A DNA stretch of 64,000 nt from Deltaproteobacteria bacterium (GTDB lineage: Bacteria > Desulfobacterota > Desulfobacteria > Desulfobacterales > C00003060). Below the pieces are notes generated by a model that ran no database searches, had not been told where the DNA came from, and worked only from the letters and a program-made list of their open reading frames with translations. Position numbers and translations under genes: made by a program. Shown here in pieces: positions 5,945 to 42,476 of this stretch (position 1 is the first letter of the stretch; each line of letters begins with the position of its first letter). The stretch covers positions 6,830 to 70,829 of the forward strand of contig QMMN01000007.1 in NCBI GenBank assembly GCA_003647275.1, written 5' to 3'.

Positions 5945-7864
5945 CTATCTGTCCACAAAGGTCCTGTGCCATAATTCCAAAATAAGAAGCGACCAGAGTC
6001 GATCTCCGTGGTCAACCCCCCCCGCCATGTGTTCACGCACAAGGGTCCTGATGGCATCTTTCTTAAAGTACCCGCGGGATAGGGCCTGCTGGCCCAACAA
6101 AAGGTCCGCGGCATACGACTTCAGCTCATTTCGAAACCAGTAGCCAAGGGGAACACCAAAGCCCATCTTGGGCCGCTTCACGATCTTATGAGGGAGAAAG
6201 GGTTTTGCGACCTTTTTCAGGATATATTTTTTGGTCCAATGCCTCAGTCTTAAATGGACCGGGATCCTGGCCACATACTCCATCAGGTGATGGTCCAAAA
6301 AGGGTGATCTGGCCTCCAAGGAATTGGCCATAGAGGCGATATCAGCCTTAACCAGCAAATCATTAGCCAAATAAGAACGCATGTCAAAATCAAGGATCTT
6401 TTCAACTGGGTCATGAGCCGTGCTTTGTTCAAAAAGCGTCAAGATGACCTGGTAGGCATCCTTGTCCGAGACCGTGGTCCTAAAACCATTTGTGTAAATG
6501 TCGGATTTCAACCTCTTGTCAAAATGGCACACCCACTTGATATAATCCTCACCACAGGGGTATGCCATCCCTTCCAGGAAACGCTTCACGCGCCTGACTC
6601 GGTTGTGGATATCCGGGGATTCAGGCCACATTGTCAGCAGTTTCAATAGAAACGGGTTTAAGAATTTTAAGCTTTTTCGGTAGTATCTTCCATACTTGTA
6701 GGCTACATATCGATCATACCCAAAGAAGTTCTCGTCTCCGCCATCCCCGTTCAATGCCACAGTCACGTAATCTCTGGTCAGTCTTGAGACGCAATAGGTG
6801 GGAATAATCGAGGCGTCAGCAAAGGGTTCGCCCAACTGAAACACCAGATCTGGGAGTATATCCAGTGCATTTGGCCTTACCTTAAATTCGTGATGTTCGG
6901 TGCAGTACTTCCCAGCCACGACACGGGCATATGGTAATTCATTGTACGAACTCTCCTCAAAGCCGATTGAAAAGGTCCTGATCGGTTCTGGATGAATATC
7001 GCTCATGAGCGCCACGATAAGGCTGGAGTCTATGCCTCCGCTCAAAAAGGCCCCGAGAGGAACATCGCTAATCATCCTTAATTCGATCGATTCTCGCAGC
7101 TTCTCAAGTAAAGCCTCTGCGATCTCGGCCTCGCCGAGGTCCTCTAACTTGTTGTTATAGTCAAGCGCCCAGTACCGTTTTACCAACAGATTCCCCTTTT
7201 CCCATACGAGGAAGTGGGCGGGTGGAAGCTTTTTAATCGCTTTGAATGCAGTCAAGGGGGCAGGCACATACTGGTAGGTCAAGTAGAGATCTATGGCTGT
7301 ATGATCAATATCTCTTGGAACCGATGTATCCGCCAGAAGGGCACAAAGACTCGAGGCAAAGCTGAGGCTGCCATCTTTTCCAAGCGAATAAAACAGAGGC
7401 TTTTGCCCCAAACGGTCTCTGGCCAAAAAGAGTCTGTTTTTCTCTTCATCCCAAATCGCAAAGGCAAACATACCCCTGAGTCTGCTTAGGAACTCGGTCG
7501 AAAATTCTTGATATGCATAAAGAACAATTTCAGTATCTGTTCTGCTCTTGAATCTATAGCCCCTTGCTATCAGTTCTCGTCTGAGATCTTCGAAATTATA
7601 TACCTCGCCATTATAAACAATCCAAATCTTCCCGTCGCTGTTGCACATGGGCTGGCGGCCTGCCCGTGATAAATCAATGATACTCAACCTTCGATGACCC
7701 AGACCGACTGACACGCCGCCGCCCCTTTTTGACGTTGAACCCTGTTTGATATAGAGCCCATCATCATCCGGCCCTCTGTGTCTCATGGTCTCCCGCATGG
7801 ATAAGAGGATTTCCGGGTCGATCGGCTTCCCCTCGGGGTTGATATGCCCACAAATGCCGCACAT
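5945..7864 (-). CDS. asnB: Asparagine synthase (glutamine-hydrolysing)
   Basis: N-terminal MCGICG (Ntn Cys), a HRGPDD block, and the PP-loop SGGIDSS. 639 aa. Confidence 0.9.
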   Translation of the reverse strand: MCGICGHINPEGKPIDPEILLSMRETMRHRGPDDDGLYIKQGSTSKRGGGVSVGLGHRRLSIIDLSRAGRQPMCNSDGKIWIVYNGEVYNFEDLRRELIARGYRFKSRTDTEIVLYAYQEFSTEFLSRLRGMFAFAIWDEEKNRLFLARDRLGQKPLFYSLGKDGSLSFASSLCALLADTSVPRDIDHTAIDLYLTYQYVPAPLTAFKAIKKLPPAHFLVWEKGNLLVKRYWALDYNNKLEDLGEAEIAEALLEKLRESIELRMISDVPLGAFLSGGIDSSLIVALMSDIHPEPIRTFSIGFEESSYNELPYARVVAGKYCTEHHEFKVRPNALDILPDLVFQLGEPFADASIIPTYCVSRLTRDYVTVALNGDGGDENFFGYDRYVAYKYGRYYRKSLKFLNPFLLKLLTMWPESPDIHNRVRRVKRFLEGMAYPCGEDYIKWVCHFDKRLKSDIYTNGFRTTVSDKDAYQVILTLFEQSTAHDPVEKILDFDMRSYLANDLLVKADIASMANSLEARSPFLDHHLMEYVARIPVHLRLRHWTKKYILKKVAKPFLPHKIVKRPKMGFGVPLGYWFRNELKSYAADLLLGQQALSRGYFKKDAIRTLVREHMAGGVDHGDRLWSLLILELWHRTFVDR

Positions 7865-8097
7865 AATGCTCTAACTATCCAAGGACTTCGATTCAGGCGT
7901 GACGTATGACATGAATATCAAGGCCGGACTTATCGTACTGTTCAGCCCTCCTCCAGCTCAGAGGGCGTGATGGCAAAGCTTTTTAGAATACCTAGGACAT
8001 CGGTAAACCAGAACGGGATAAAACTGACATTCTTTTGACCACACGCAAAATATCCTCTTCTGTGTTACAAATCATCTCTGCCTTTCCTGTATGGGAT

Positions 8098-9621
8098 TCA
8101 TCGGTATAGGCGATAGTCGACGCCATATTTTTTTGCCTTATAAGCAAATTTGCGCTCGGTTGTGTGAAGCATCTTTGCGGCCTTTGCCATATTGCCCCGC
8201 GTGCTTTTCAGCGCATCAATAATGATCTCCCGCTCCAGATTCGCCACAGCCTCCTCTAATGACCGCCCAGGCAAGGTACCCGACTCCTCTGCCGTCTGCA
8301 CTGTCGGAGGCAAATGGTAGCTGTGGATCACGCCCTCGTCACAAAGCAGCACGACCCGCTCTATGCAGTTCTCAAGTTCTCGCACGTTCCCAGGCCAGTG
8401 GTACTGCATCAGCATGTCAATAGCCGGCGTCGAAAAACGGCGGATGTCCTTTTGGTTCTCCTTGGCGTATCGCTCTAAAAAGTAGTCCGCTAACAGCAAA
8501 ATATCAGTCTTGCGCTCCCTTAACGGGGGCATGTAAATGGGAAAAACATTCAACCGGTAATACAGGTCGCCACGAAAGCTCCCTTCCGCCACGGCCCGCT
8601 CTAAGTTCTTGTTCGTGGCCGCTATAATGCGAACATCCGCCTTAATGGTCTCATACCCCCCTACCCGCTCAAACTCCTTCTCCTGAAGAACCCGCAAAAG
8701 CTTCACTTGAATCTCCATGTCAACGGAACCAATCTCATCCAAAAAAATCGTCCCTTTGTTCGCCAATTCAAATTTTCCACGCTTTTGCCGAATCGCACCA
8801 GTAAAGGCCCCTTTCTCATGACCGAAAAGCTCGCTTTCAATAAGATTGGCAGGTAGTGCTGCACAGTTCACTTTCACAAACGGGGCATTTGCCCTCAGGC
8901 TGTTATAGTGAATGGCATTGGCTGCCAACTCCTTGCCCGTGCCGCTCTCACCCCGTATCAACACCGTGGCATTGCTCTTGGATACCTGGGAAATCATTTG
9001 AAACACATCCCGCATCTTGTTGCTGTTGCCTATGATATTGGTAATGCGGTACTTATTGGAAAGCTCCTGGCGAAGCCGCCTGTTCTCTTCCCTGAGCCGC
9101 TCCCTTTCAAGGTGGATCGTTTCAAGATTAATCACATGCTGGGCAATCATCGTGGCAATAATGGAAAGCAGCCGCTCCCCGTCCTTTAAGGCGTAAGACG
9201 CCTCATAGGGCCGATCAACACTCAGGGCCCCCACAACCTGACTCCCTTTTTTCACAGGAACGCATATAAAGGAAATCTCCTGGTCCGATACAGCCCTCCT
9301 GGTGGCCGTGCGGTTCAAAAACAAAGGCTCTTCGCTGATCCTCGGCACAACAATAGGCTTGCCTGTCTGGATCACCCGCCCGGTGATCCCCTCACCCATC
9401 TTATACTTACCCCTTTGCATGGCAGCCCTTGAAAGACCGTGCGCAACCTCAATGCTGATCTCATCCCTGAGGGGATTAAGAATGGTGATCGTCCCTCGCA
9501 CCATGTCCGTTGAATCGGAAAGAATGTCCAGAACCTTGTAAAGTGACTTCCTCAGATCCAAACTCATATTGAGGGCTTCGCTGATCTCATAAAGCAAACG
9601 GACTTCTTCAATCTTTCTCAT
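8098..9621 (-). CDS. Sigma-54-dependent transcriptional activator, GAF-AAA+-HTH (NifA-like architecture)
   Basis: N-terminal GAF-like domain of about 170 aa, Walker A GESGTGKE, the GAFTGA loop (HEKGAFTGA), ESELFGHE, and a C-terminal Fis-type [23 protein letters not shown]. Confidence 0.85.
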
Positions 9622-9765
9622 CTGTCAACCCGAATCATGCGACGAAACATGAAATCCCTTCCTCACCCAAAAGGTAAAACGCAACACAAACAAAAGCAAC
9701 AACGTAAAAGGGGCGTCAGGCTTGTCTATTGGGGTACAATCTGGGACAAACGGATAGCGCAATTT

Positions 9766-11448
<1,683 letters not shown>

Positions 11449-11534
11449 TCACAATGTGTTGATGTATGATGCCCGATGCCTGATAACAAGTGAAATGTTT
11501 GTCGGACATCCGGCATCTGGGATCCGGCAACCGT

Positions 11535-14500
11535 CTATGAAGTACTCCCATTTTTCACACGATTGACAATGGACTCGGAAATCTTTTCGGCAGATATACC
11601 AAAGAGTTCTTCAATCTCAAGCAGATTTAGATATTCATCCTTCCAGGCAAGGCTTGTCTCTTCAACAAGATTTCGGATATGATGATATTTGCCCCCTAGA
11701 GCGCTGACCTTATCTTCAAGCTCTACCTGGGTTTTAAATCCAACATTGAATAGTAGGAGATAGTCAATATTGGTGCCGGCTGAGATGACCGGAACGGCAA
11801 GAATACTTCTGTTATCCGTTCTTCCTTTGCCAATAAATACATTCCCGTTCTTCACGATGATCCGCTTGGTACCCCGCAACCTATTATCAGTCTCAACCCG
11901 GGAGACAAGCTCTGCAGCGCTTCCTTCTTTTTTGATCACATGGATGGTCGAATCTTCAACAGGCTCCCCCAAATAGTTCAAACCCGCTATCCTGTAAAGT
12001 GTGGTCCCCTTTATTTCGCTAATGACCGCCTGTAATCGCTTCAACACTAAAACGTTGCTGGTGGTAAGCTGGTTTTGGTTAAACCCATGATTACCGAGTG
12101 CTTCAAAGAGGAGGCCTTCTACCTTTTCTGAGATCCTGCTTGTGCCAACCGTGACAGTTTTCGCCTGGTGTTTTATGGCATCCACAGGCCGGGCCATCTC
12201 ATTGATGACTTTGCCAATACACTCAAAAAAGGCTGTCAGTATATTGGGCGCGGTGCCCTTGATCCCAAAATCAAACTCAAAATCTGAGACAGGGAGTCTT
12301 CCTGCCAGGTATTTTAGCAAGAGCGTGAGATCCGATGCGGCCTGTATTGCCATGGCTGTGGTGTATCGGTTGTGGCTTATTCTCTCCTTGAAGGCCTTAT
12401 AAAACCGCGCTGCCTTTTCTTTAAATCCCTCATCCAGTATGATCTCGTACACATCCTGTCCCTTGTCCATAGAGGTGGCGACATGTTCATGGATCTGCTC
12501 CCGGAAATTGAACAGATATCGGGACTCTTCATTGATGGCCAAGGCTGCGTAGTATCCCCAAAGATGACCTGCCAGGGTGTTTAGTATGGGCGCAAAGTGC
12601 TCCTTTACCTCGGGCACGTAAATCACTGCATCGGCATACGGCTCAAACCGATGCTCGCCTTCTGTGGCCACCACAATCGGCACAGCTTGATGGGCTTTGA
12701 ATATAGCTGTGTCCTTCACAATGTCACCGACGACGTCATCACGGTTGCCTGCGGCACAAACAAAGATCAAGGGCTCCGAAGAAAGATCAATGTGCTTTTT
12801 GTCTTCAACCACGTCTGATGAGATCGTTTTATAGCAAAGTTCGCTCAGTTTTATTCTAATTTCATCAGCAGAGATCTTATTGGGGCCGCTTCCCACAACA
12901 GCCCAGTATTGTTTTGTAACCGCAAATTTCTCTGCTGATTGTCCGATCTCCCGCCGCTTTTCCAACACCTTCTCCATGCATGCAGGAAGCCTCCAAAGGT
13001 GTTCTATCTCCGCTATAATCAAATCGTCTGTTATGCTGCCGACCAATTGGGCCAGCCTCAGCCCCAGGATGCTCCCTCCTACAACCTGAGAATAGTACGC
13101 CTTGGTGGAGGCAACAGACATTTCAATATCTCTGCCGGTGCTCGTATAAAGCACGCCATCCACCTTAAATGTGATGTCAGAGTCCCTCCTGTTGACAATG
13201 GCTATGGTGTAGGCCCCTCGTCCTTTTGCCATATCAATGGCACGATTGGTATCTGTGGTCGTTCCAGACTGCGTGATGGCAACCACCAGGGTATCCTCCA
13301 ATGCGTCTGCAAGCATAAACCCGCTGAATTCAGAAGCCTTAAGGGCAGCCACACGGATATCGGTCTCTTTTAAATAGTACTTCAGCAGTTCCGCACACCC
13401 TGAAGCCGCCACCCCTGCTGTGCCCTGTCCCATAAAAAAAATCTTGCGGATCCTGTTTTGTCTCAAGGCCGATTCAAGGCGAGCCGGTATGACGGAAGCA
13501 TCCAGGAGGATCTGTGGACATCTTTTGCCGTTTTTTTCAACGATGGCCACCCGGCCTTCAATGGTCTGTTCCACCGAGCGTGGCGATTCTGAAATTTCCT
13601 TCAAAAAATAGTGGGGATAGTTCTGGCGGTCGATATCTCTTGAGGTAATTTCTGTCTCTTTAACGTCCTCTTCGGAGAGCTCAATAGGCATGCCATCATA
13701 ATACATGGCCTTGATACCTTCAATGCCTCCACTGGAATTCTGATCCAACACAAATATTTGACCCTGAGTTTTGCCGGATATGCCTTCAACCACCTTCTCC
13801 CCGTCCAGCTTAACATAACGGGGCGTTTCCTCAACAAACCCGTAGCTCTCAGAAGCCAACACATAGTGGTCTTCGGCCAACCCCACAAATATCGCTTGCC
13901 CGCTGCCCTTCTGTGCGAGAAAAATCTTTCCGGGTGCAAGGTCACTGTGCATGGCAATGGCATGAGACCCTTCAAAATCGCTGACTGCCAGGCGAAAGGC
14001 TGTTTCAAGCGTCTTGTCTTTCTTAAGGTACTTTTCTATCTGAAGTGGAATGATCTGAGTATCTGTGGTAATCTCCTTGGCAATAGCCCGCCCACTTTCC
14101 CTTTCATAGTCCCGTTTTAGGCTCTGGTAATTATCAATATCTCCATTCAAACAAACATGAATGATGCCGGTAAGATTTGGCTCGCAGACGCCAACGCCAT
14201 CTTTCTCATGAAAACCGTCTTGCGCCACGCCAAAATTATCAACAGGATGGCAGTTGGCTTCACTGATTTCGCCAACCGAAGCCCAGCGGGTATGGGCCAC
14301 TGCGCTGTGATCAATGTGGGGGAACCTAATGAGGTGCTGGAATATGGCATCCTCCCGAACCTGCTTTCTCAGATATTGAACATTGTCCCCAAGACTTCCG
14401 ATCTCAGCGGCTATCTTGTAAGTGAATGCCAATGAAACCGTGGGACTGTGCTTATTGATCCTGATGCCGCGATTTAATAAGACATAGCCAGCCTGTCTGG

Positions 14501-15272
14501 CCTCAAATTCATCAAGCAGGGATTTCTCTTGCAACGTTTTTTGAAACCGGGAAAAGTTGGCCTCATCAAGTACAAAAAGGAGGGAGATACCTGCAGAGTC
14601 TCTTCCCCTGACTTCAAGTCGATCCAGGTTGTTAAAGACAAGGTTAATCTCTTTGAGCCGCCTCACAGCAAGTGGGGTGTTGTCGTATTGGCCAAATGAG
14701 CCCAAGGCATTTATTTTGTCAATATTTTCAAGGATCTCGTACTTCAAGGACCACAGGATATCCCTCAACTGAATTATGCGGCGACTCATGGATTCATATT
14801 CTTCTGCTGCCAAACGCCCTTTTTTCTGGATCCGAACATTGTCTTCAGCCTCGATCAGGCTCTCTAACTTCGCACAAAGGTTGGAAAGTTGCTCCCTGTA
14901 GCCCCTGTTAGAAAAAACTTCATAAAACTCATCGTGAGCCTTAAATCTATTACAGAGGTGTTTGATCTCCTTCAAGAGATCTTTTCCACCAAGGTAACTG
15001 TCTATTCGTCCCGGCCTTTTTTTTTCGAGCCTCTCCCAGGTGTATTCAAAAAGGGTCTCTACCTTATGCTCTATCTTCTGAACGGGCAAATTTACGGTTT
15101 GGGCAGATCGTCTCTTGAAGGCCAGAACACCTGTTATCCCGCAGTTTAAAACGGCAGGATCATAAGGAAACAGAACTAATGAACCTTCTGCAACCGTTTT
15201 CAAACTCCTTCCAAAGTAAAAGCCGGTAATGCCTTTTGTCTTCAAAAATGCCTTTATTTTCTTGAGTATCAT
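11535..15272 (-). CDS. Giant GlmS-like protein: class-II glutamine amidotransferase plus two SIS domains, with large insertions and extensions
   Basis: NCGITG (Cys44), RGRDSAGIS, HTRWASVG, CHP and LNGDIDNY blocks form the GATase-2 part. SIS motifs are GQGTAG...ITQSGTTTDT and VVGSGPN. At 1245 aa it is about twice the size of a typical GlmS. Confidence 0.75.
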   Translation of the reverse strand: MILKKIKAFLKTKGITGFYFGRSLKTVAEGSLVLFPYDPAVLNCGITGVLAFKRRSAQTVNLPVQKIEHKVETLFEYTWERLEKKRPGRIDSYLGGKDLLKEIKHLCNRFKAHDEFYEVFSNRGYREQLSNLCAKLESLIEAEDNVRIQKKGRLAAEEYESMSRRIIQLRDILWSLKYEILENIDKINALGSFGQYDNTPLAVRRLKEINLVFNNLDRLEVRGRDSAGISLLFVLDEANFSRFQKTLQEKSLLDEFEARQAGYVLLNRGIRINKHSPTVSLAFTYKIAAEIGSLGDNVQYLRKQVREDAIFQHLIRFPHIDHSAVAHTRWASVGEISEANCHPVDNFGVAQDGFHEKDGVGVCEPNLTGIIHVCLNGDIDNYQSLKRDYERESGRAIAKEITTDTQIIPLQIEKYLKKDKTLETAFRLAVSDFEGSHAIAMHSDLAPGKIFLAQKGSGQAIFVGLAEDHYVLASESYGFVEETPRYVKLDGEKVVEGISGKTQGQIFVLDQNSSGGIEGIKAMYYDGMPIELSEEDVKETEITSRDIDRQNYPHYFLKEISESPRSVEQTIEGRVAIVEKNGKRCPQILLDASVIPARLESALRQNRIRKIFFMGQGTAGVAASGCAELLKYYLKETDIRVAALKASEFSGFMLADALEDTLVVAITQSGTTTDTNRAIDMAKGRGAYTIAIVNRRDSDITFKVDGVLYTSTGRDIEMSVASTKAYYSQVVGGSILGLRLAQLVGSITDDLIIAEIEHLWRLPACMEKVLEKRREIGQSAEKFAVTKQYWAVVGSGPNKISADEIRIKLSELCYKTISSDVVEDKKHIDLSSEPLIFVCAAGNRDDVVGDIVKDTAIFKAHQAVPIVVATEGEHRFEPYADAVIYVPEVKEHFAPILNTLAGHLWGYYAALAINEESRYLFNFREQIHEHVATSMDKGQDVYEIILDEGFKEKAARFYKAFKERISHNRYTTAMAIQAASDLTLLLKYLAGRLPVSDFEFDFGIKGTAPNILTAFFECIGKVINEMARPVDAIKHQAKTVTVGTSRISEKVEGLLFEALGNHGFNQNQLTTSNVLVLKRLQAVISEIKGTTLYRIAGLNYLGEPVEDSTIHVIKKEGSAAELVSRVETDNRLRGTKRIIVKNGNVFIGKGRTDNRSILAVPVISAGTNIDYLLLFNVGFKTQVELEDKVSALGGKYHHIRNLVEETSLAWKDEYLNLLEIEELFGISAEKISESIVNRVKNGSTS

Positions 15273-15441
15273 ACCCCTATCTTACAAAATTGTACGTTAA
15301 CAGGGAAAGCCTCCATCTTTCCCATTACTCCTGAGAGAAGGGGGGCGGCCCTAAAAAGTAGTAAATGAGCTTGAACAGATGCTTTAATCAAGCCCTACGT
15401 ATATGATTTTGGGACCTCATCCCTACTCATGCAAAAGGATT

Positions 15442-16188: not shown

Positions 16189-16415
16189 ACATCATGGACT
16201 CGTAAAAAGTCATCAAATAGACGGCTCCAGATGCAAGACGCGCACCTCTTTTAAAGCCGTCAGGCGCAATCTTGAGAAATGAGGCGTACTTAAACGTACG
16301 TCGGAATGATTTACCCTGTTAAATCGGCTCCGCCGTCTCGCATAACAAGAATTTAACAGAGCGGGGATGAAGCGCAACGCAGTAGATGGACTTTTTACGA
16401 AGCTGTCACACACGA

Positions 16416-18793: not shown

Positions 18794-18842
18794 ATCAACT
18801 CTCCACAGGCTGTTGCCCAAATCACCGAAATGCAAATGTGAA

Positions 18843-18909
18843 GCCTCCCCGCCCTCCCGGGCAGGGATTCTGCCTGACGGCAGCGCTTCGCGTCCGGGGA
18901 GCAGGCCGG
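18843..18909. repeat. GC-rich multi-hairpin (cloverleaf-like) repeat, copy 1 (copy 2 at 47403-47470)
   Basis: The outer helix CTCCCCG/CGGGGAG encloses three hairpins: GCCC-tccc-GGGC, CTGCC-tgac-GGCAG and CGC-ttc-GCG. The 3' two-thirds is near-identical to the second copy. Confidence 0.7.
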
Positions 18910-18939
18910 TCAATATGTAAAATGCTCAAACAGTCTAAA

Positions 18940-33470: not shown

Positions 33471-33531
33471 CTTGTTCCTCTCTCCTTCTTTTGCCAGGAC
33501 ATCTCGCCCTCATTATCTTAGGGCATTTGCG

Positions 33532-33546
33532 GCAAGACTTATGCCA
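33532..33546 (-). promoter_or_regulatory. Sigma-54 (-24/-12) promoter of the glutamate synthase operon
   Basis: The minus strand reads TGGCATAAGTCTTGC (GG-N10-GC spacing, TGGCAT...TTGC). It lies about 62 nt upstream of the ATG at 33470, and a GGAGAGAGG RBS follows. Confidence 0.6.
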
Positions 33547-33757
33547 ATTGAATATATACTACAATGTCAGTATGTTGCTCAACAGAAACCGTTTGCGCAC
33601 CTTGAAAAATAAACGCTTTTGTAGGATTTTTTATGGATAAACAACATTTTTGTATACTAACAGTCCGTCAAAGCTGAATGATGATTATAGAAAGCCATCG
33701 TGGGCTGCAACAGAACCCAATCTATAAGAAAGTGGCCGATGAATGAAAACACGGGGG

Positions 33758-35404
33758 TCACTCGAATGAGGGTAGGTACCTTTGGGCGATGGGATACCTT
33801 CTTCCATAGCCGAAAGATTTTGTGGTGACCTTCAATCCCGGGGGGGCCTGATGTCGCTTGTATTCGTTGCGATCAACCCGGCAGATGGTTTCCCTCACAG
33901 TTTGAGGGTCAAACCCCATGGCAACGATCTCCTCTGCCCCCTTATTGTCTTCAATGTATGCCTTCAATATCCCATCCAGGATCTCGTAAGGCGGCAAATC
34001 GTCCTGGTCTACCTGATCGGGTTTGAGCTCGGCCGATGGGGGTTTTTCAAAAATCCTCGCAGGAATCACCTCTTCTTTCTTGTTGACAAAACGGGCAAGC
34101 TCATAAACCATTGTCTTTGGAACGTCCGAAATCATGGCTAAACCGCCGCTCATATCACCGTAAAGCGTGCAATAGCCCACAGCCAGTTCTGATTTGTTCC
34201 CTGTAGAAAGCAGGAGGCAACCCAACTTGTTGGAAAGCGCCATGAGCAGGGTGCCCCGAATGCGTGCCTGGATATTTTGTCCTGTAATTTCCGTGGCAAT
34301 GTCTTTGAAGACCAAAGACAATTCCTCAAGAAACTTCTCGAATATGCCTGCAATGGGCAGTTGAATAAGCTGAATACCCAAATTGGATGCAAGGGCTTTG
34401 GTATCTTCAAAGTTTTCCGTAGACGTATATTGAGAAGGCATGAAAACACCCTTGACATTTTCCCTTCCAAGGGCCTGTACGGCGATGGCGGCCGTAAGGG
34501 CTGAGTCAATGCCGCCGCTCAATCCTACCACGACCTTGTCAAACCCACACTTTCGGACATAATCCCTGGTCCCCATAATCAGCGCATTGCACATAGATTC
34601 CGTGTCGGTTTCAGCAATGGGGTGCAGGTCTCCCTTTTGGGTTTGGGTATCAAAGACGATCATATCCTCTTCAAAGTCACGCGCCCGGGCCGTCATCTGA
34701 CCTGTTGAATCAAAGGCCACGCTAAGCCCATCGAATAGAACACTGTCATTTCCACCCACCTGATTGACGTACACGAGAGGAACCTGATATTTTTTGGCAA
34801 TATTGCCGAGCATGTCCCACTTAAATGCTCTTTTTCCGACATAATAAGGAGAAGCCGAAATGTTGATGATGAGATTGGCGCCATTCTTGATGATACGGGC
34901 TACGGGGTCAACAGAGTAAAGCCGCCTGGGGAAAAAATCCTTGTCATTCCAGATATCCTCACAAATGGTCAGCCCTATTTCCCAACCCTTATAAAAAAAA
35001 GAGCTGTATTCGGTGCCGGGTTCAAAATACCGCCTCTCGTCAAAAACGTCATAAACAGGGAGCAATCTCTTGTGTACTTGATGGAGAATCCTGCCTTCAT
35101 CAAAAAGTGCTGCCGAGCTGTAAAGCGGGTTGCCCTCCTGCTTCTGATTTTTATCTACAAATCCACAGATAACGCCGATCCCTTTGACGGAATCAACCAG
35201 CCTGTAAAAATGATCCAGGTTGGCGGTCACAAAGGCTTGCTTTTCCAGGAGGTCCCGGGGTGGATAGCCACAGATGACCAGTTCGGAAAACACGATAAGG
35301 TCACACGCAAGGTCTTTGGCCTTTTCTATGTAGGCCATGATCTTATCCATGTTGTGTTTGAAATCGCCGATCGTGGGATTGATTTGCGCAAGAGCGATCT
35401 TCAT
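33758..35404 (-). CDS. nadE: Glutamine-dependent NAD+ synthetase (nitrilase-like glutaminase plus synthetase domains)
   Basis: MKIALAQINPTIGDF CN-hydrolase N-terminus and the PP-loop GLSGGIDSAL. 548 aa. Confidence 0.9.
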   Translation of the reverse strand: MKIALAQINPTIGDFKHNMDKIMAYIEKAKDLACDLIVFSELVICGYPPRDLLEKQAFVTANLDHFYRLVDSVKGIGVICGFVDKNQKQEGNPLYSSAALFDEGRILHQVHKRLLPVYDVFDERRYFEPGTEYSSFFYKGWEIGLTICEDIWNDKDFFPRRLYSVDPVARIIKNGANLIINISASPYYVGKRAFKWDMLGNIAKKYQVPLVYVNQVGGNDSVLFDGLSVAFDSTGQMTARARDFEEDMIVFDTQTQKGDLHPIAETDTESMCNALIMGTRDYVRKCGFDKVVVGLSGGIDSALTAAIAVQALGRENVKGVFMPSQYTSTENFEDTKALASNLGIQLIQLPIAGIFEKFLEELSLVFKDIATEITGQNIQARIRGTLLMALSNKLGCLLLSTGNKSELAVGYCTLYGDMSGGLAMISDVPKTMVYELARFVNKKEEVIPARIFEKPPSAELKPDQVDQDDLPPYEILDGILKAYIEDNKGAEEIVAMGFDPQTVRETICRVDRNEYKRHQAPPGLKVTTKSFGYGRRYPIAQRYLPSFE

Positions 35405-35905
35405 AACCGTCTCGTAAATCTTGCAACTTGCTGAAGTAATTTTGCCCTATTGCTTATTGTATCACAAAATGATGCTGGATGCTCGATGTCCCGGATCCAC
35501 CGAGATTATTCCGGTAAAAGTCGGAATAGATTAAAATACAAACTGAATATATGTAGCCAGTATCAAGCATCCAGGCCGCCGCATCCATCTCGTGGATATC
35601 TTCCGCCACCGACTCAGGAAGCGGGTTATTCTCTTCGACGCTTCTTCGTGTCGTCGATTTCTTCTTGTCCGTAAAGCAAGAATCGATCTGTAAGAACATA
35701 TGAAGGGAGAGCCGAACCGCGCCTCTTCCTTTATCTGGGGAATGCCCTGTTTGGGGGCCACGTTATCATGAAGCCCTATAACTATAGGAGGCTCTTGCCT
35801 GTACGGGAATTTCTAATTTCATGCATTTTCCCTCAACCCCGCAGATAAGCAGGGCTAATCAGTGGCAAGTCGGTCAGGGAAAATCAGCGATTAAGCATAC
35901 TCACC

Positions 35906-35932
35906 ATTATACTATGGTAGAATGTTTGTCAA
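35906..35932 (-). promoter_or_regulatory. Candidate sigma-70 promoter (TTGACA-N15-TATAAT) firing towards nadE
   Basis: Both hexamers are perfect consensus on the minus strand, but the spacer is only 15 nt. It sits about 500 nt upstream of nadE. Confidence 0.3.
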
Positions 35933-36362
35933 TTTTCACACCTTCTGAGCGACAACACCCTTTCGCCATCCAGATCCTGAAGCCGACCCGTAAATCCCGC
36001 TCAACCAAGACAATGGTCGTGCCAATCCAAGATGACGACAGGTTGTTGCCCAAACAGCCATGCACCCGGCATGAGGAGGGCCATCAAGGGTGATTTCTTT
36101 TTGAAGTCAGGTCACTGGGAATAAGTCTCCTTATTACCTTTGGCTATTCGCTAAATGAAAAAACTTTTTTCGACATACCGGTTTATCCCATTTACAATGG
36201 GCGCCTGAGGTTGTAAACTGCATTTATATGTGCCCTTCAGGGCCAGCGGCTGGTTCGAGTGACGCGATGCATTCTGCCCCTGACAAGCAGAATAAGATTT
36301 GATCTTCCTCAAAAAGAGATGCCCCTTGGCAGTTTGCAAACGCCAAAAGAGGGGGCTGGGAC

Positions 36363-36415
36363 TTGAACATGCACAGCAAACGCATTCCCCACAGCTTGCT
36401 GCAGACCGCTTCAAT
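36363..36415 (+). repeat. 53-nt interspersed repeat, copy 1 of 3
   Basis: TTGAACATGCACAGCAAACGCATTCCCCACAGCTTGCTGCAGACCGCTTCAAT aligns along its full length with 44431-44483 and with the reverse complement of 38506-38558. Confidence 0.7.
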
Positions 36416-36725
36416 TATCGTGATTTAGGCAACCGCCTGACAACGGGCTGTTGCCCAGATAAAAATTCCTTTGAGCGGTCATTAAAATGTTTTTTGTCAA
36501 CAAATCTTGGCGAAGCGGAAGATCAGCGACTTCAACTGTTTGAGTCCGAAGGGCGAGTTTTGAAGTCGCCTGGAGCAAGCCTTAGATTTGTCAAAAAACG
36601 TTTTAGACCAAGCGAGAAGGGATTTGGGCAACAGTCTGACAATACCTGACCTATGGCCACAGCTGGCAAGAATTGTTGGGAAGAACTACCATTTTGTATG
36701 ATTGGCCGATAGAATCCTGCAAAAT

Positions 36726-36741
36726 TGTGTGTTTGGAGACA
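36726..36741 (+). promoter_or_regulatory. TGT-N10-ACA motif (NifA-type UAS consensus) upstream of the glnA promoter
   Basis: TGTGTGTTTGGAGACA lies about 80-95 nt upstream of the -24 element and is followed by a tandem GGAGACAATA x2. The motif has low information content, so a chance match is plausible. Confidence 0.3.
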
Positions 36742-36820
36742 ATAGGAGACAATAATTGATATCCGGAGGTAATCTGTAACTTGTTGATCTATAAGGCATT
36801 CTTTAACCGATCTTTCGACA

Positions 36821-36835
36821 TGGCATGACATTTGC
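36821..36835 (+). promoter_or_regulatory. Sigma-54 (-24/-12) promoter of glnA
   Basis: TGGCATGACATTTGC with correct GG-N10-GC spacing, 60 nt upstream of the glnA ATG (36895). Confidence 0.65.
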
Positions 36836-36894
36836 CCTTTAGGAAGGGCCAAAATTTAATCCAAAAACAACCAGATCAAGGAGGAAATGGACAG

Positions 36895-38319
36895 ATGAGC
36901 AAACCAAAAACCCCTGTGGAAGTATTAGATCTCATTGCAAAAGAAAAGATTGAAGTTATAGATTTGCGATTCATGGACTTTCCGGGACTCTGGCAGCATT
37001 TTTCTGTTCCGGCCAGAGAACTTGATGAAGCTGCCTTTGAGAGCGGCGTTGGTTTTGATGGGTCCAGTATCCGGGGATGGCAGGCGATCAACGAATCCGA
37101 CATGCTTGTGAAGCCCGTGGCAGAGTCTGCTTTTATTGACCCGTTTTTTACTGCAAATACCCTTGTCCTGATCTGCAACATCTGTGATCCGGTCACCGGC
37201 GAAGACTATACGCGGGATCCCCGGAACATCGCGCGCAAGGCAGCAAACTATCTGAAGAGTTCGGGCATCGCTGATGTAGGGTATTTCGGTCCTGAGGCCG
37301 AGTTCTTCATCTTTGATGACATTCGGTTTGATCAAAACGAACATGAAGGGTATTACCATATCGATTCCGCGGAGGGTCGATGGAATACGGGCCGCGTTGA
37401 AAACCCCAACTTAGGCTACAAACCCCGTTATAAAGAGGGGTACTTCCCGGTTCCGCCCACAGACAGCCTGCAAGACATCCGCAGCGAGATGATGTTGACA
37501 TTGGAGAAAATCGGGGTTCTTATCGAAGCACAGCATCACGAAGTGGCCACAGGCGGACAGGCCGAAATCGACATGCGCTTTGCACCATTGGTGGAGATGG
37601 CGGATAACGTATTGAAGTACAAGTATGTTATTAAGAATACCGCCCGTAAATATAATAAGACCGTAACATTTATGCCAAAGCCGCTATTCAATGACAATGG
37701 TACGGGCATGCATACCCACATATCATTGTGGAAGGGAGATCAGAATCTATTCGCTGGCGATGGCTATGCAGGTTTGTCCGAAATGGCACTATATGCTATC
37801 GGGGGCATTTTGAAGCATACGCCGTCCCTGCTGGCCTTCACGAGCCCCACCACGAACAGCTATAAGCGTCTGGTGCCGGGTTTCGAAGCTCCGGTGAACC
37901 TGGCCTATTCCAGCCGAAACCGCAGTGCAGCGGTTCGTATTCCCATGTACTCTCCTTCTGCTAAGGCTAAGCGCATTGAGTTCCGCTGTCCAGACCCGAG
38001 TTGCAATCCTTATCTGGCCTTCTCGGCCCTATTAATGGCAGTGATCGATGGCATTCAGAACAAGATCGATCCCGGGGAGCCGCTGGACAAGGATATTTAC
38101 GATCTGCCTCCAGAAGAACTGGCAAAGGTTCCCCATACGCCGGGCTCTCTTCGCGAGGCTCTTGAGGCCCTCGATGCAGATCACGATTACCTGCTAAAAG
38201 GAGATGTCTTCACATCGGACGTGATCGAAACGTGGATCTCGTACAAGATGGAGTGCGAGGTGCAGGCCATTGACCTTCGTCCCCATCCATGGGAATTCGC
38301 CCTGTACTACGATATCTAG
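36895..38319 (+). CDS. glnA: Glutamine synthetase type I, with the adenylylation-site motif
   Basis: 474 aa from ATG 36895 (GGAGG RBS 10 nt upstream). Family blocks are [16 protein letters not shown] and [13 protein letters not shown]. The adenylylation loop [10 protein letters not shown] is present. Confidence 0.95.
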
Positions 38320-38360
38320 GCTTTTTAAGACCTTTTGTTTACTCTCAACAGATGCCCTGG

Positions 38361-38384
38361 AAAAAGGGCGTCCCTTTTTGTTTT
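38361..38384 (+). terminator. Weak intrinsic terminator candidate after glnA
   Basis: AAAAAGGG-cgt-CCCTTTTT hairpin followed by GTTTT. The stem is A/T-rich with only three GC pairs. Confidence 0.35.
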
Positions 38385-38558: not shown

Positions 38559-38669
38559 CTCATATGATGCCCCGGTGCACCGCTAACCAATGTACCTCCG
38601 TGGAGCAGGCCCTGATCATTGGGGGCACATAAACGGCCAGGCCAGTACAGCCAAGGGATAAACCGCCTT

Positions 38670-41600
38670 ATGAAGCCCACGCTTGATATGCTTAAGGCCG
38701 CATGTCCAGAAGTCGATCAAAGGCTTTTGAATGCCCACCTTTCCCGGCTAAGCAACCGATATTTTGACAGGTTCGCTACGCACCAGGTTTGCGAACATAT
38801 GAAAGGACTTTCACGGATCTCAACCGAACATCCCGTGGAAGTGCTGCTGGATGCAAAAGGCGATGGGAATGTGAATTGTACGGTGCTGGCCTTTGATTAC
38901 CCTTACCTGTTTTCTCTGATCACCGGCGTGTTGGCAGGCATGGGCTTCAATATTGTGTCTGGCGATGTGTTTACATACGAACGGGCCCTCGACAAACCGC
39001 TGATAGATGTCTGCCGAAGAAAACTTACTTCCCGCAGGACAGTACAAGATCCTCTGAAAAGACGGCGTATCATAGACTTTTTTTCCGGTCAGCTGGAAAC
39101 ATCTCGCGCACCTGAAACCTGGTCGGATGATCTCAAAAAAAATATGGAAGATGTCATTTCCCTTTTGGAGCGCGGTGATAGCGAATCAGTGACTGATGCA
39201 AAACATCGAGTGAACGAAATGGTCGTCAAACGGCTGGCCGATCTGCATATGGATTCGCATCCGGTCCTGTTTCCGGTGCAAATAGAATTCGATAATGAGA
39301 GCGGTCCGTACACACGGTTGAAGATCGTGTCCGAAGATACGCCGGCCTTTCTTTACACCCTGACCAATGCCCTCTCCCTCCAAGGAATTTCGATTGAGCA
39401 CGTCAGCATACGCACCATTCACGGACGAGTTGAAGATGAAATAGAGGTTGTTGATGTTCGTGGCAAAAAGATTGAGGATCCCAATGTCTTAAGTCGCGTC
39501 AAGCTTTCGGTTCTTCTTACGAAACAGTTCACTTATTTCCTCGGGAAGGCGCCCGATCCTTATGTCGCCCTGCACCGTTTTGAACAGCTTGTCGGAGACG
39601 TCTTGCGACTGCCCGAGCGAGGCCAATGGATGGACTTGCTCTCCAACCCGCACGCCCTGCAGGATCTGGCACGGTTGCTCGGGACAAGTGATTTTTTGTG
39701 GGAAGATTTTATCCGTCTCCAGTACGAGACACTCCTGCCAATGCTTAAGCCCTTTTTGGAGGGGCACCGGTTCAGCGAGCCCGTAGACCAGCTCTCCCAA
39801 AGGCTCCGAAACGCCATAAAAGGGATCAACAAGCTGGAAGAGCAACGACGAAGGCTCAATGAATTCAAGGACCGGGAGATCTTTCTTATTGACCTGGATC
39901 ATATCCTGAATCCTGAAACGGATTTCAGGGTGCTCGCTAGAAGACTGACGGTCCTGGCGGAAAATGTTGTGAACATGGCGGCAGAACTCGCTTACGCACA
40001 CCTGGTCAAACGATTTGGAAGGCCTAGAACAGCGGCCGACCTTGAGGCCACTTTTGCCATTTTGGGGTTGGGTAAAATGGGGGGAGCCGCATTAGGCTAT
40101 GCTTCTGATATTGAACTCCTTTTTGTTTACAGCGATAACGGTTCGACGGACGGTGAAGAATCTATTGAAAATGCCGAGTTTTTTGACCGCCTGGTAAGAA
40201 ATACAACGCAATTCATACAAGCCAAGAGAGAAGGCATATTTAATGTTGATCTCAGGCTTCGCCCTTATGGAAACAATGGTCCATTGGCCTGCAGCCTGGA
40301 GAATTTTTGCCGATATTACGGACCAGAAGGATCAGCTCATTCCTATGAGCGTCTTGCTCTCGTGCGTCTGCGTGCCATAGGGGGCGATAAGAATTTGGCC
40401 GCTCGGGTGGAAAGAATTCGGGATCAAATGATTTATGCCTCTAGAAACATCAACCTCAAGGAACTGCGTGAACTGAGAAACAAGCAATTTAAGGAGAAAA
40501 CAGAAGCTGGCAAGCTTAATGCCAAGTTTAGCCCTGGCGGACTCGTGGACCTCGAATATGCCGTACAGGTTCTTCAGGTCATGTATGGCAAGGATGTGCC
40601 TCAGCTTAGGACACCTCGCATACACGAGGCCCTGACTGCCTTGACCGTTGCAGGCGTTTTATCACCAGTTGAAACAGAACAACTCACGGCTGCTTACGGT
40701 TTTCTTCGCCGCCTGATTAACGGTATGCGCATGCTCCGGGGTTCAGCAAAGGATCTTTTTCTTCCCCCCATTGATTCGGATGAATTTGCTCACCTTGCCA
40801 GGCGCATGGAATACAAAGGAGGAGGCGCACTGGATCCCACGGGGCAACTCCACATGGATGTCGAAACCCACATGGCTACCGTGCGGGCCTTTGTTGAGCG
40901 GCATTTTGGGCGCGATTCATTACCGGGGTCTGCAACCGGCACCGTAGCCGACCTGGTCCTATCCGATCGTGTGCCCCATGACCTCCGGCATCAGATTCTG
41001 TCTGGTGCTGGCTTCAAAAATCCTGCACGAGCCTATGTGAACCTCCGGGCTTTGGCAGGAGACGAATCACGCCGGCAGACATTTGCCAGGCTCGCCCTGC
41101 TGGCCTTTGACATTCTTTTGAGAACTCCAGACCCCGATATGGCCCTTAACAACTGGGAGCGGTACATCCGCGCCCTGCCGAGCCCTGAATTCCACTATAA
41201 CATACTTCTTTCTCAGCCCATGCGGCTCGAAATCCTGTTGAGCGTTTTATCTGGAAGCCAGTTTCTGGCCGATACCTTGGTGAGAAACCCGGGATTTTTG
41301 GACTGGGTCACCATCCCGAAGAACTTACACCAAATCCAAGGCAGAAAGAATCTTGAGGATGAATTAAGAATGGCTTCTGAGGGCTGCAACAGCCATAAGG
41401 TATGGCTTAATAAGCTCCGTCGATTCAGAAGACGAGAGATGCTTCGGATCGGTACACGCGATATATACCTCGGGGTGTCAACCGAGGATGTCATGCTGGA
41501 ACTCTCTACTCTTGCTGAAGCCCTTACCCAGGTAGTCCTTGAGAGGGTCTGGGCAACGCTCAAGGAGGAGCAGGAGACCGCGCAGGAGGTGGAAGCGATA

Positions 41601-42476
41601 GCAAATCACTTTTGTATCCTGGCGTTCGGTAAGCTTGGAGGCTCTGAACTCAATTACAGTTCAGATATTGACCTCCTGGGAATTTATGATGCCCCTGCCA
41701 CGTCTCTGGGGTCCAATGCTCACACCTTTTTGCAAAAGCGCTTCGCCCGGGTCATGGAAAGCGTACGAGCAGACCTTTCGATGCATACAGACGAGGGGTA
41801 TGCATATCGCGTGGACCTGCGACTCAGGCCATATGGTGGAGCGGGCGAACTCGTCCCCTCTGTTTCAGCACTCATAGATTATTATCGAAACGTGGCATCC
41901 CTCTGGGAAATTCAGGCAGCCCTTAAGATTCGGCCGGTGGCAGGCCACCTACAAATAGGTGACCATTTCCTTGAGAAGATCCGCCCTGTTCTTTTGCAAC
42001 GTCGCAAACGCGAGGCCATTGTCCATGCCATTGAAAAAATGCGCAAAGCGGCCATCAAAACCTGTTCTCGTCGCAATAGGCCCATCAGGGATGTGAAAAG
42101 CGGCATGGGTGGTTTGCGCGACGTGGAATTCCTGGTTCAAGGGCTGCAGCTCATCCATGGACCAGACCATCCCGGGTTGCTGGAGAGAAATACCCTGAAC
42201 GCCCTGGAGGGACTCCAAAAGACAGACATTCTACCTGAACCAGTGGCAGCGCAACTCAGGGAAGACTACGTGTTCTTGCGACGAGTCGAACACTATCTTC
42301 AAATTCTAGAAGATCGTCAAATACATGCCCTGCCAAAAGACCCTGATGAGCTGACCGCACTGGCCAAAAGGGTCCTTGGCGCTGAAGGGAATGCAAGCCA
42401 TTTCATGGAACAACTGGAGGGATGTCTGAAGCGCATACGGGCCGCCTATATCTCGTACCTGGTGGAAAGCAAGTGA
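38670..42476 (+). CDS. glnE: Glutamine synthetase adenylyltransferase/adenylyl-removing enzyme with an N-terminal tandem ACT-like extension
   Basis: Two nucleotidyltransferase halves (GKMGGAALGYASDIELLFVY and GKLGGSELNYSSDIDLLGIY). The first ~330 aa hold two ACT-like segments (NCTVLAFDYPYLFSLITGVLAGMGFNIVSGDVFTY and YTRLKIVSEDTPAFLYTLTNALSLQGISIEHVSIRTIHGRVEDEIEV). The start is uncertain: TTG 38619 or ATG 38670. Confidence 0.85.
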   Translation: MKPTLDMLKAACPEVDQRLLNAHLSRLSNRYFDRFATHQVCEHMKGLSRISTEHPVEVLLDAKGDGNVNCTVLAFDYPYLFSLITGVLAGMGFNIVSGDVFTYERALDKPLIDVCRRKLTSRRTVQDPLKRRRIIDFFSGQLETSRAPETWSDDLKKNMEDVISLLERGDSESVTDAKHRVNEMVVKRLADLHMDSHPVLFPVQIEFDNESGPYTRLKIVSEDTPAFLYTLTNALSLQGISIEHVSIRTIHGRVEDEIEVVDVRGKKIEDPNVLSRVKLSVLLTKQFTYFLGKAPDPYVALHRFEQLVGDVLRLPERGQWMDLLSNPHALQDLARLLGTSDFLWEDFIRLQYETLLPMLKPFLEGHRFSEPVDQLSQRLRNAIKGINKLEEQRRRLNEFKDREIFLIDLDHILNPETDFRVLARRLTVLAENVVNMAAELAYAHLVKRFGRPRTAADLEATFAILGLGKMGGAALGYASDIELLFVYSDNGSTDGEESIENAEFFDRLVRNTTQFIQAKREGIFNVDLRLRPYGNNGPLACSLENFCRYYGPEGSAHSYERLALVRLRAIGGDKNLAARVERIRDQMIYASRNINLKELRELRNKQFKEKTEAGKLNAKFSPGGLVDLEYAVQVLQVMYGKDVPQLRTPRIHEALTALTVAGVLSPVETEQLTAAYGFLRRLINGMRMLRGSAKDLFLPPIDSDEFAHLARRMEYKGGGALDPTGQLHMDVETHMATVRAFVERHFGRDSLPGSATGTVADLVLSDRVPHDLRHQILSGAGFKNPARAYVNLRALAGDESRRQTFARLALLAFDILLRTPDPDMALNNWERYIRALPSPEFHYNILLSQPMRLEILLSVLSGSQFLADTLVRNPGFLDWVTIPKNLHQIQGRKNLEDELRMASEGCNSHKVWLNKLRRFRRREMLRIGTRDIYLGVSTEDVMLELSTLAEALTQVVLERVWATLKEEQETAQEVEAIANHFCILAFGKLGGSELNYSSDIDLLGIYDAPATSLGSNAHTFLQKRFARVMESVRADLSMHTDEGYAYRVDLRLRPYGGAGELVPSVSALIDYYRNVASLWEIQAALKIRPVAGHLQIGDHFLEKIRPVLLQRRKREAIVHAIEKMRKAAIKTCSRRNRPIRDVKSGMGGLRDVEFLVQGLQLIHGPDHPGLLERNTLNALEGLQKTDILPEPVAAQLREDYVFLRRVEHYLQILEDRQIHALPKDPDELTALAKRVLGAEGNASHFMEQLEGCLKRIRAAYISYLVESK

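Follow-up and report, generated by a model that had tools for sequence, protein, structure and literature searches.

What keeps nine enzyme systems together on a chromosome when the amide nitrogen of glutamine is what they share? The question is raised by a 64,000-nucleotide stretch of contig QMMN01000007.1 (assembly GCA_003647275.1), hereafter the window, in which 17 co-directional minus-strand genes span positions 5945-35404, as established from its open reading frame (ORF) listing and from family models, and in which glnA and glnE lie on the plus strand, divergent from this run. Thirteen of the 17 genes encode nine glutamine-amide-using systems: AsnB, PyrG, a GlmS-like protein, PurF, CarAB, GuaA, HisHF, glutamate synthase (GOGAT) and NadE (Table 1). 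The reading that we favour, with moderate confidence, is that this uncultured Desulfobacterota organism, of sulfate-reducer type and akin to Syntrophales, has kept the locus in evolution as a "glutamine hub".

Gene content and substrate logic

Read from position 35404 down to 5945, the order is nadE, gltGAT, gltFMN, gltGXD, hisH, hisF, carA, guaA, carB, purF, an iron-type alcohol dehydrogenase (ADH) gene, a DegT-type aminotransferase gene (kdnA), kdsB, the GlmS-like gene (glmSL), pyrG, a GAF/sigma-54 activator gene and asnB. Family calls were made on the ORF listing of the window with curated NCBIfam models and their cut-offs, together with Pfam domains. AsnB, PyrG, PurF, CarA, CarB, GuaA, HisH, HisF and NadE all exceed the cut-offs of their own NCBIfam models, and the scores of AsnB against the PEP-CTERM amidotransferase model and of HisF against the WbuZ model fell below the respective cut-offs. 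By the ORF listing and these models, every gene named in the initial annotation of this DNA is present where it had been placed.

The glutaminase domains of the cluster belong to three unrelated folds: the class I triad type (PF00117; PyrG, GuaA, CarA and HisH), the class II N-terminal nucleophile (Ntn) type (GATase_6/7; AsnB, PurF and the GlmS-like protein) and the nitrilase type (CN_hydrolase; NadE). Paralogy or tandem duplication therefore cannot account for the cluster. No neighbouring pathway gene (guaB, purD, pyrB, hisA or similar) was found in the window, and each pathway is represented in the cluster solely by its glutamine-dependent step. Since only such steps are present, and since they employ three unrelated folds, the shared substrate is left as the sole common denominator; the proposal of the initial annotation, that the genes are ordered by shared substrate and not by pathway, gains support from both observations.

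A cluster for nucleotide biosynthesis, serving CTP, purine, pyrimidine, GMP, NAD and, via phosphoribosyl pyrophosphate (PRPP) and aminoimidazole carboxamide ribonucleotide (AICAR), histidine, would make the glutamine link incidental. PyrG, PurF, CarAB, GuaA and NadE do all act in nucleotide synthesis, and an Omnitrophota locus (L056, see below) adds PurL and PurQ. This explanation appears very improbable to us, as guaB, purD/M/N, pyrB/C/D/E/F and nadD are absent both from the window and from the related locus L169, as GOGAT, AsnB, the GlmS-like protein and GlnA/GlnE fall outside the nucleotide enzymes, and as the conserved core links GOGAT to carAB-purF.

The initial annotation had also called for the clustering to be compared with random gene order, and this comparison excludes chance. 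With multi-subunit enzymes counted as one unit, and assuming 16-25 amidotransferase systems, 2500-4500 genes per genome and a random gene order, the probability of finding at least nine systems in 17 consecutive genes is 6e-16 to 1e-11, corrected for all windows.

Conservation in related genomes

Related loci and contigs (L-numbers) were obtained from homologue scans and mapped with tblastn; one scan was centred on GuaA, with one genome per species, and the second on gltGAT in metagenomes. The nearest relatives in the GuaA scan are Syntrophales, Smithella, Syntrophus and "Desulfobacteria" metagenome-assembled genomes (MAGs). In these maps a carA-guaA-carB-purF core is present in ~25 Syntrophales loci, and ~8-10 of these add, upstream, an activator gene (for an enhancer-binding protein, EBP) followed by gltGAT-gltFMN-gltGXD, with a type III glutamine synthetase (GS) gene or a 443-aa GS-like gene (glnA2) between; glnA-carA-guaA-carB-purF is an alternative form in some loci. 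The closest relatives (83-85% GuaA identity) carry gltGXD-hisH-hisF-carA-guaA-carB-purF-(ADH-kdnA)-kdsB-glmSL-pyrG, and GCA_034189385.1 carries carA-guaA-carB-purF-kdsB-glmSL-pyrG. A single contig of GCA_975852855.1 holds nadE-glt and, ~10 kb off, asnB-hisH-hisF-carA-guaA-carB-purF-glmSL-pyrG, with nine amidotransferase genes in a row.

A second widespread form was found with the gltGAT scan in other Desulfobacterota, where (Fur)-glnA-glnB-glnD-glnE is divergent from gltGAT-gltFMN-gltGXD-carA-carB-purF. Among the informative glt loci, 22 of 35 have an amidotransferase gene (carA, purF or hisH) directly after gltGXD, mostly at less than 150 bp. Further variants place glt divergent from glnA-glnE, with amt-PII-glnD (L165), combine asnB-nadE-amt-glnA2-glt with a GATase gene further along (asnB-nadE-amt-glnA2-glt-...-GATase; L171), or set gatB-gatA-aspS/gatC (gatCAB) beside glnA-glnE (L167). 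In the controls (Opitutaceae, Planctomycetota and others), guaA mostly stands with no cluster-gene homologue nearby. Judged from these maps, variable forms of the arrangement have been conserved far outside this strain, and the possibility, raised in the initial annotation, that it might be confined to the strain does not agree with the recurrence of its variants across Desulfobacterota.

Two observations from the scans may be added. A hisH-like gene of 38-42% identity lies ~6 kb downstream of guaA in the Opitutae-type loci L058, L064, L069, L074 and L079. GuaA matches of ~2.1 kb in Smithella were considered as a possible intein or insertion; this was rejected, as tblastn had joined the carA glutaminase domain to guaA.

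The Omnitrophota MAG (L056, JAJRVD010000023.1, positions 630-15493) carries carA-carB-purF-pyrG-(isocitrate/isopropylmalate dehydrogenase family)-guaA-purL-purQ. Its CarA, CarB and PurF are 57-63% similar to those of the window, on a par with the Smithella proteins, so that transfer of the carA-carB-purF block is possible; an independent origin of the Omnitrophota cluster is, for the same reason, not established.

An array of this kind could also be produced by a chimeric metagenome contig joining non-adjacent segments. The source is indeed a short-read metagenome contig (ENA ERZ27227320 k141_508232, 84.7 kb), and the presence of one gene as two fragments 27 kb apart, described below, could hint at mis-joins. 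However, an identical GlmS-like protein is encoded on a second, 188-kb contig of an NCBI MAG (a protein match only), and overlapping sub-arrangements in the independent relatives L002, L004, L009, L083, L087, L090, L091, L165 and L169 cover every junction type. We find an assembly artefact scarcely credible.

Uber-operons, or supra-operons, are reportedly neighbourhoods in which operons with a functional link are conserved while their order changes from genome to genome (Lathe, Snel and Bork 2000). The modules described here behave likewise: glt, carA-(guaA)-carB-purF, kdsB-glmSL-pyrG, hisHF, nadE, asnB and glnA/E stay near one another, and their order and content vary. The usual bond in an uber-operon is one pathway or complex, whereas here it is a co-substrate shared over nine pathways.

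The glnB-nadE gene islands provide another likeness, as the gene of a glutamine-dependent enzyme lies beside nitrogen-signalling genes, an arrangement read as a functional link; the conserved pairs led to the proof that PII binds and tunes the glutamine-dependent NadE (PMC7196632). Those islands are a two-gene pair with a shown protein interaction, whereas 13 genes are concerned here. On this precedent, coupling could act at the protein level, either through a shared partner (PII or another sensor of glutamine or 2-oxoglutarate) or through a loose GS assembly aided by co-localised synthesis, and PII, glnD and amt genes do occur in the neighbourhoods of relatives. Yet no PII gene lies in the window, and the enzymes are structurally unrelated, with no obvious common partner, which leaves protein-level coupling an unlikely basis for the cluster.

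Operon junctions and leaders

Several genes of the run are closely joined. The hisH and hisF genes overlap by 11 nt, hisF and carA are 1 nt apart, and carA and guaA overlap by 4 nt; carB and purF are separated by 16 nt, gltGAT and gltFMN overlap by 37 nt, and the ADH gene and kdnA are 14 nt apart. Such overlapping or 1-16 nt junctions suggest that at least two operons join enzymes of different pathways, and by their spacing hisH-hisF-carA-guaA and carB-purF point to cross-pathway operons. A spacer of 376 bp lies between the glt genes and hisH.

Consensus scans for sigma-70 promoters and terminators gave no enrichment over shuffled sequences, and operon boundaries are not defined by them. Nothing relevant came from Rfam, which was searched with the window, 13 related loci and the L150 leader; the sole match was a fluoride riboswitch elsewhere in L149. 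The 1.4 kb between nadE and glnA (35405-36817) holds no convincing ORF and no Rfam match, and L165 has a similar gap of 2.2 kb.

A conserved leader of ~200 nt was observed in relatives between the sigma-54 promoter and gltGAT (L150, 9741-10003), with further copies in L121, L125, L126, L142, L147, L153, L155, L159, L161 and L162; it is absent from the window. It contains a terminator hairpin whose 3' arm can pair with a segment further upstream, ATCCTGCC; L125 shows one compensatory change, and most copies contain a 16-codon ORF. RNAalifold gave no convincing consensus for this leader, and an nhmmer profile matched only its 11 training loci. From its sequence, the L150-type leader may act as an attenuator or riboswitch for the glt-carAB-purF operon.

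Related copies of the ~200-bp element in the kdnA-kdsB spacer of the window (Table 1) lie in intergenic spaces of L032, L034, L112, L122, L124, L165 and L168. It could be an element resembling a miniature inverted-repeat transposable element (MITE) or a structured RNA.

Sigma-54 promoters and the GAF-domain activator

Promoters of the sigma-54 type stand out ahead of gltGAT and of glnA when scored with a weight matrix derived from 31 distinct sites in relatives (Table 1). Both have the -24 GG and -12 GC elements at correct spacing, are intergenic and are in the right orientation. Among the related loci, 36 carry the motif ahead of gltGAT, against ~0.015 expected per locus, and similar promoters lie upstream of glnA in three relatives (L011, L012 and L017). 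Upstream of purF, carB, gltFMN and gltGXD it was never found in the related loci scanned. Palindromes of the form ACA-W4-TGT, expected 0.026 times per 220-nt region, occur in 30 of the 41 promoters examined, at 75-125 nt upstream of the -24 element and often paired 31 bp apart; the upstream activating sequence (UAS)-like sites of the window are listed in Table 1.

In the relative L082 (8870-8975), a sigma-54 promoter, TTGGCACGGGTTTTGCT, with a ACAAAAATGT site ~80 nt upstream, precedes kdsB-glmSL-pyrG, which indicates that control of this type can extend, in a relative, to this second module. Ahead of the kdsB module no sigma-54 promoter occurs in the window; an orphan ACAAAATTGT was noted at 15284-15293, 11 nt before the start of the GlmS-like gene.

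Orthologues of the activator (79-82% identity) adjoin glt (L104) or amt-glnK-glnD-glnK-amt-glnA-glnE (L166). The protein exceeds the cut-off of the NifA model (TIGR01817; 546.3 bits against 528.85). No nif genes occur in the window or near the activator orthologues, no TGT-N10-ACA site was found upstream of glt, and the one upstream of glnA is possibly due to chance. On the grounds of its gene context and type of UAS we do not identify it as NifA, even though it scores above the cut-off. The gene for sigma-54 itself, rpoN, is not in the 64-kb window.

By analogy, the GAF activator is treated here as a nitrogen-assimilation activator, like DVU1949 of the sulfate reducer Desulfovibrio vulgaris, whose predicted nitrogen regulon comprises glnA, glnN, amt-glnB and a three-gene GOGAT (PMC4641369). 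This regulon, and the NtrC-sigma-54 control of glnA, have in common with the present system a GAFTGA activator tied to glnA, GS-type genes, amt-glnB and a three-gene GOGAT, and -24/-12 promoters with upstream enhancer sites. The target operons of D. vulgaris lie apart from one another, and the regulon lists no amidotransferase consumers, whereas here the targets are physically joined with nine consumer systems.

A proposed glutamine hub and its principal alternative

The core of the proposed hub would be ammonium assimilation, with glnA-glnE divergent from a three-gene, archaeal-type glutamate synthase operon. Both glnA and glt would run from sigma-54 promoters with palindromic enhancer sites upstream, and the likely activator is the GAF-domain protein encoded within the cluster. 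Co-directional genes of glutamine-amide consumers would have accreted to this core, behind it and around it, and some of them would have been fused into cross-pathway operons (hisH-hisF-carA-guaA; carB-purF), and in this lineage the array would have merged with kdsB-glmSL-pyrG, a second module also present in relatives, as well as with nadE and asnB. The benefit may be that producers and consumers of glutamine are co-expressed and co-inherited, enzyme supply tracking the nitrogen status. We infer activator binding, read-through from the glt promoter and a nitrogen response that reaches beyond glt and glnA; coordinated control of "glutamine-N distribution" across the whole run, as suggested in the initial annotation, could likewise be envisaged.

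Several observations detract from this picture. The blocks other than those with tight junctions are split by spacers of 108-376 bp, several of which contain long hairpins, and independent, possibly constitutive promoters are therefore likely. The claim of the initial annotation that part of the cluster runs from sigma-54 promoters is upheld for glt and glnA by their conserved promoter and UAS motifs, and for nothing else in the cluster: no such promoter was found at the other amidotransferase genes in the window, where the next-best cluster site reaches at most 14.7 bits and is intragenic. A third sigma-54 promoter (53745-53767, plus strand, 19.1 bits) precedes a response-regulator gene (53809-54300), is divergent from an NtrC-type activator gene (52165-53520) and has a palindrome of the same type at 53643-53652, 105 nt upstream; as this promoter is unrelated to the cluster, the UAS does not single out the GAF activator. 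Among the relatives, L082 holds only kdsB-glmSL-pyrG, the isolate Desulforhabdus sp. TSK carries glt alone, and guaA is solitary in Desulfobacteraceae and Desulfatiglandales loci.

It is also conceivable that the cluster has no regulatory meaning, and that persistent, essential and highly expressed genes with their own constitutive promoters have drifted together and are retained because deletions or rearrangements between essential genes are counter-selected. A tendency of persistent genes to cluster has been described (PMC2234087), and it would suit both the sizeable spacers of most blocks, which have no recognisable shared promoter, and a cluster make-up that is fluid among relatives. Persistence leaves unexplained why nine of ~20 amidotransferase systems should be assembled from several hundred persistent genes, why glutamine-dependent steps only are included, why the cluster is anchored on glnA/glt in many lineages, and why genes of different pathways overlap. 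We regard it as a serious alternative, albeit not a probable one.

The glutamine-hub reading can be extended to a general proposal, which we put forward tentatively and as less than probable. Chromosomes might be organised by a shared co-substrate, with selection retaining the major glutamine-amide consumers beside GS and GOGAT as a "glutamine supra-operon" that tunes production and consumption of glutamine to nitrogen status. Here the tuning would be achieved with sigma-54 and the GAF activator, and in some relatives with a leader-RNA attenuator; a similar solution occurs in a second phylum, Omnitrophota, whether by convergence or by transfer. No description of such a supercluster was found in the literature searched; earlier knowledge covers the regulatory core and pairwise links of the glnB-nadE kind.

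Table 1. Features of the glutamine cluster in the window, in order of position. Where two bit scores are joined by "vs", the second is the cut-off of the NCBIfam model.
Feature	Positions	Strand	Evidence and remarks
asnB, glutamine-hydrolysing asparagine synthase family, class II Ntn	5945-7864	-	TIGR01536 (asn_synth_AEB), 472 bits vs 267; GATase_7 and Asn_synthase
glnA2 5' fragment (443-aa GS-like gene), frameshifted, pseudogene remnant	7939-8075	-	in 233-bp EBP-asnB spacer
One-component sigma-54 activator: GAF, AAA+ with GAFTGA, HTH_8	8098-9621	-	domain and motif search
pyrG, CTP synthase, class I glutaminase	9766-11418	-	862 bits vs 308
Giant GlmS-like amidotransferase, 1245 aa	11535-15272	-	glutaminase, SIS and C-tail motifs
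kdsB, CMP-Kdo synthetase	15442-16188	-	309 bits vs 193
~200-bp intergenic element, kdnA-kdsB spacer	16200-16400		inverted repeats TCGTAAAAAGTC / GACTTTTTACGA
kdnA orthologue (8-amino-3,8-dideoxy-manno-octulosonate transaminase), DegT-type	16416-17621	-	PDB 5k8b, 351 bits over full length; next match 186
Iron-type ADH, probable start 18793	17636-18913	-	best matches methanol/propanediol dehydrogenases, 280 bits
purF, amidophosphoribosyltransferase, class II	19069-20466	-	541 bits vs 350
carB, carbamoyl-phosphate synthase large subunit	20483-23767	-	1711 bits vs 599
guaA, GMP synthase, class I; between carA and carB	23876-25405	-	827 bits vs 400
carA, carbamoyl-phosphate synthase small subunit, class I	25402-26499	-	531 bits vs 307; true ATG at 26499
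hisF, imidazole glycerol phosphate synthase cyclase subunit	26501-27280	-	353 bits vs 295
hisH, glutaminase subunit, class I	27270-27911	-	218 bits vs 105
gltGXD, GOGAT subunit: GXGXG, GltD-like FAD/NAD(P)H domain and ferredoxin (Fer4)	28288-30618	-	PF01493, PF14691, PF07992, PF12838
gltFMN, GOGAT subunit: 2x[4Fe-4S] ferredoxin and Glu_synthase FMN domain	30742-32376	-	PF01645, 203 bits
gltGAT, GOGAT amidotransferase subunit, 376 aa, N-terminal Met-Cys	32340-33470	-	fold match to GltB
Sigma-54 promoter of glt operon, TTGGCATAAGTCTTGCC	33527-33549	-	20.0 bits, best of the window; ~60 nt upstream of gltGAT ATG
UAS-like palindrome, ACAAAAATGT	33644-33653		107 nt upstream of glt -24; degenerate second site 31 nt downstream
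nadE, glutamine-dependent NAD+ synthetase, nitrilase-type glutaminase	33758-35404	-	687 bits vs 479; CN_hydrolase and NAD_synthase
glnA2 3' fragment, weak, residues 355-378	35574-35645	-	tblastn E 1e-3; in 1.4-kb non-coding stretch
UAS-like site, GCAAAATTGT	36719-36728		102 nt upstream of glnA -24
Sigma-54 promoter of glnA, ATGGCATGACATTTGCC	36818-36840	+	19.1 bits; ~60 nt upstream of ATG
glnA, type I glutamine synthetase, 474 aa from ATG 36895	36895-38319	+	667 bits vs 429
Intrinsic terminator-like hairpin with T run after glnA	38351-38379	+	
glnE, GS adenylyltransferase, long form	38619-42476	+	NF008292, 514.7 bits vs 487; PF03710 in two stretches

Traces of rearrangement

The two fragments of glnA2 lie 27 kb apart in the same orientation. 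Residues 17-44 of the 5' fragment are 86% identical to the gene at 15126-16457 of L166, and blastn matched it to glnA2 5' ends in 10 loci; the 3' fragment was matched by blastn to the glnA2 3' end in L085 and L091 (E 3e-6). In relatives the intact glnA2 adjoins nadE or glt. Because glnA2 is split in this manner, the present gene order looks like a recent circular permutation. The ancestral order looks like one with glnA2 just upstream of nadE-glt, as in L091, and either tandem duplication with random loss or excision with re-insertion would give the permutation; the place that the activator gene took relative to glnA2 in the ancestor is shown by no relative. The kdsB/aminotransferase/ADH trio, which the initial annotation took for the only interruption of the run, is indeed present, but it is not the sole one, as the activator gene and the two pseudogene fragments interrupt the run too.

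Unusual proteins of the cluster

The GlmS-like protein stays below the curated GlmS cut-offs, with 268.7 bits against 381 (NF001484) and 243.4 against 418 (TIGR01135). In an alignment that also included 11 homologues and the GlmS of E. coli, it shares with GlmS the Ntn glutaminase motifs (RGRDSAG, HTRWAS..NCHP and NGDIDN), both SIS regions and the C-tail (AKTVTV, of the AKSVTVE type). It differs from GlmS in its double size and in its additions, namely a conserved 43-aa pre-sequence, a ~160-aa helical insertion and a ~240-aa C-terminal domain. The invariant Cys is residue 44 of the encoded protein, behind the conserved pre-sequence, and activity would require processing. Members of this family, of ~1225-1290 aa, are widespread in Desulfobacterota, where the database names them only "SIS domain-containing" or GlmS, and in the relative L084 the gene adjoins PGM/PMM (glmM-like) and Glucosamine_iso genes.

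Sequence searches of Pfam, NCBIfam and the PDB gave no match for the gltGAT product. Its predicted structure is of low confidence (predicted local distance difference test, pLDDT, 53), and Foldseek matched it only to N-terminal domains of GltB alpha-subunits (E 5e-7 to 4e-5); as the model is poor, only the family-level fold match is used. The names given to it in data sources are glutamate synthase or class II amidotransferase. With this modelled fold, amidotransferase, FMN, GXGXG and GltD-like reductase modules are predicted to be encoded together, as in the split (archaeal-type) glutamate synthase, in which the first three of these, all domains of GltB, are separate proteins accompanied by a GltD-like reductase. 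The present enzyme differs in the fusion of GXGXG to the GltD-like and ferredoxin domains, and in an amidotransferase subunit that lies beyond the reach of Pfam.

GlnE has an extra N-terminal region of ~300 aa that is homologous to the C-terminal, ACT part of GlnD. All 120 homologues among the matches listed are of this long form (1183-1316 aa, mostly ~1260-1290 aa). A local origin, in which loss of glnB and of most of glnD would have fused the GlnD ACT domains to GlnE, was considered and rejected, as the long form is a conserved family; moreover, relatives with a long GlnE (L165 and L166) retain separate glnD and PII genes.

The trio of KdsB, a KdnA orthologue and an iron-type ADH is, by its gene content, a cassette resembling that for Kdo8N (8-amino-3,8-dideoxy-manno-octulosonate). 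The Kdo8N pathway of Shewanella consists of KdnA, KdnB and KdsB (Gattis et al. 2013, cited in PMC5125639), and in the window, too, kdsB lies beside a clear KdnA orthologue and an iron-type ADH. Unlike the situation in Shewanella, the ADH is not a KdnB orthologue: KdnB (5k8c) ranks 35th among its matches at 105 bits, whereas other iron-type ADHs reach 240-280 bits. The ADH is a possible analogue of the Kdo 8-oxidase.

Flanking regions

Both flanks are unrelated to the cluster. To the left are PfkB, DUF3047 and a low-GC DnaB/primase/HTH remnant; the segment 373-3723 (GC 0.42-0.44), at the left edge of the cluster, contains a truncated DnaB-like helicase gene, a DnaG-type zinc ribbon, an HTH_3 gene and a 227-aa gene of no assigned family, and is probably the remnant of a mobile element. 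To the right are a histidine kinase, an MFS transporter, a radical-SAM protein, a binding protein, two other activators and a TonB receptor. Within this flank, 44490-53520 encodes the MFS transporter, a geopeptide-like radical-SAM/SPASM peptide maturase, the binding protein, a sensor-less sigma-54 activator, the TonB receptor and the NtrC-type activator, and may be an uptake locus or one for a ribosomally synthesised and post-translationally modified peptide (RiPP).

Significance

The neighbourhood is a strong aid to the annotation of the giant GlmS-like enzyme, of the GOGAT amidotransferase subunit that Pfam does not recognise and of the long, ACT-containing form of GlnE, three unusual proteins for which present libraries offer poor names. 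Furthermore, this activator serves as a warning: it passes the NifA model, yet it is not nif-specific. The manner in which glutamine nitrogen is shared among competing biosyntheses would become testable at one locus, with one activator and two promoters. Finally, gene clusters are normally read as pathways or complexes, and a conserved cluster in which the donor substrate is the sole common denominator would add a different organising principle.

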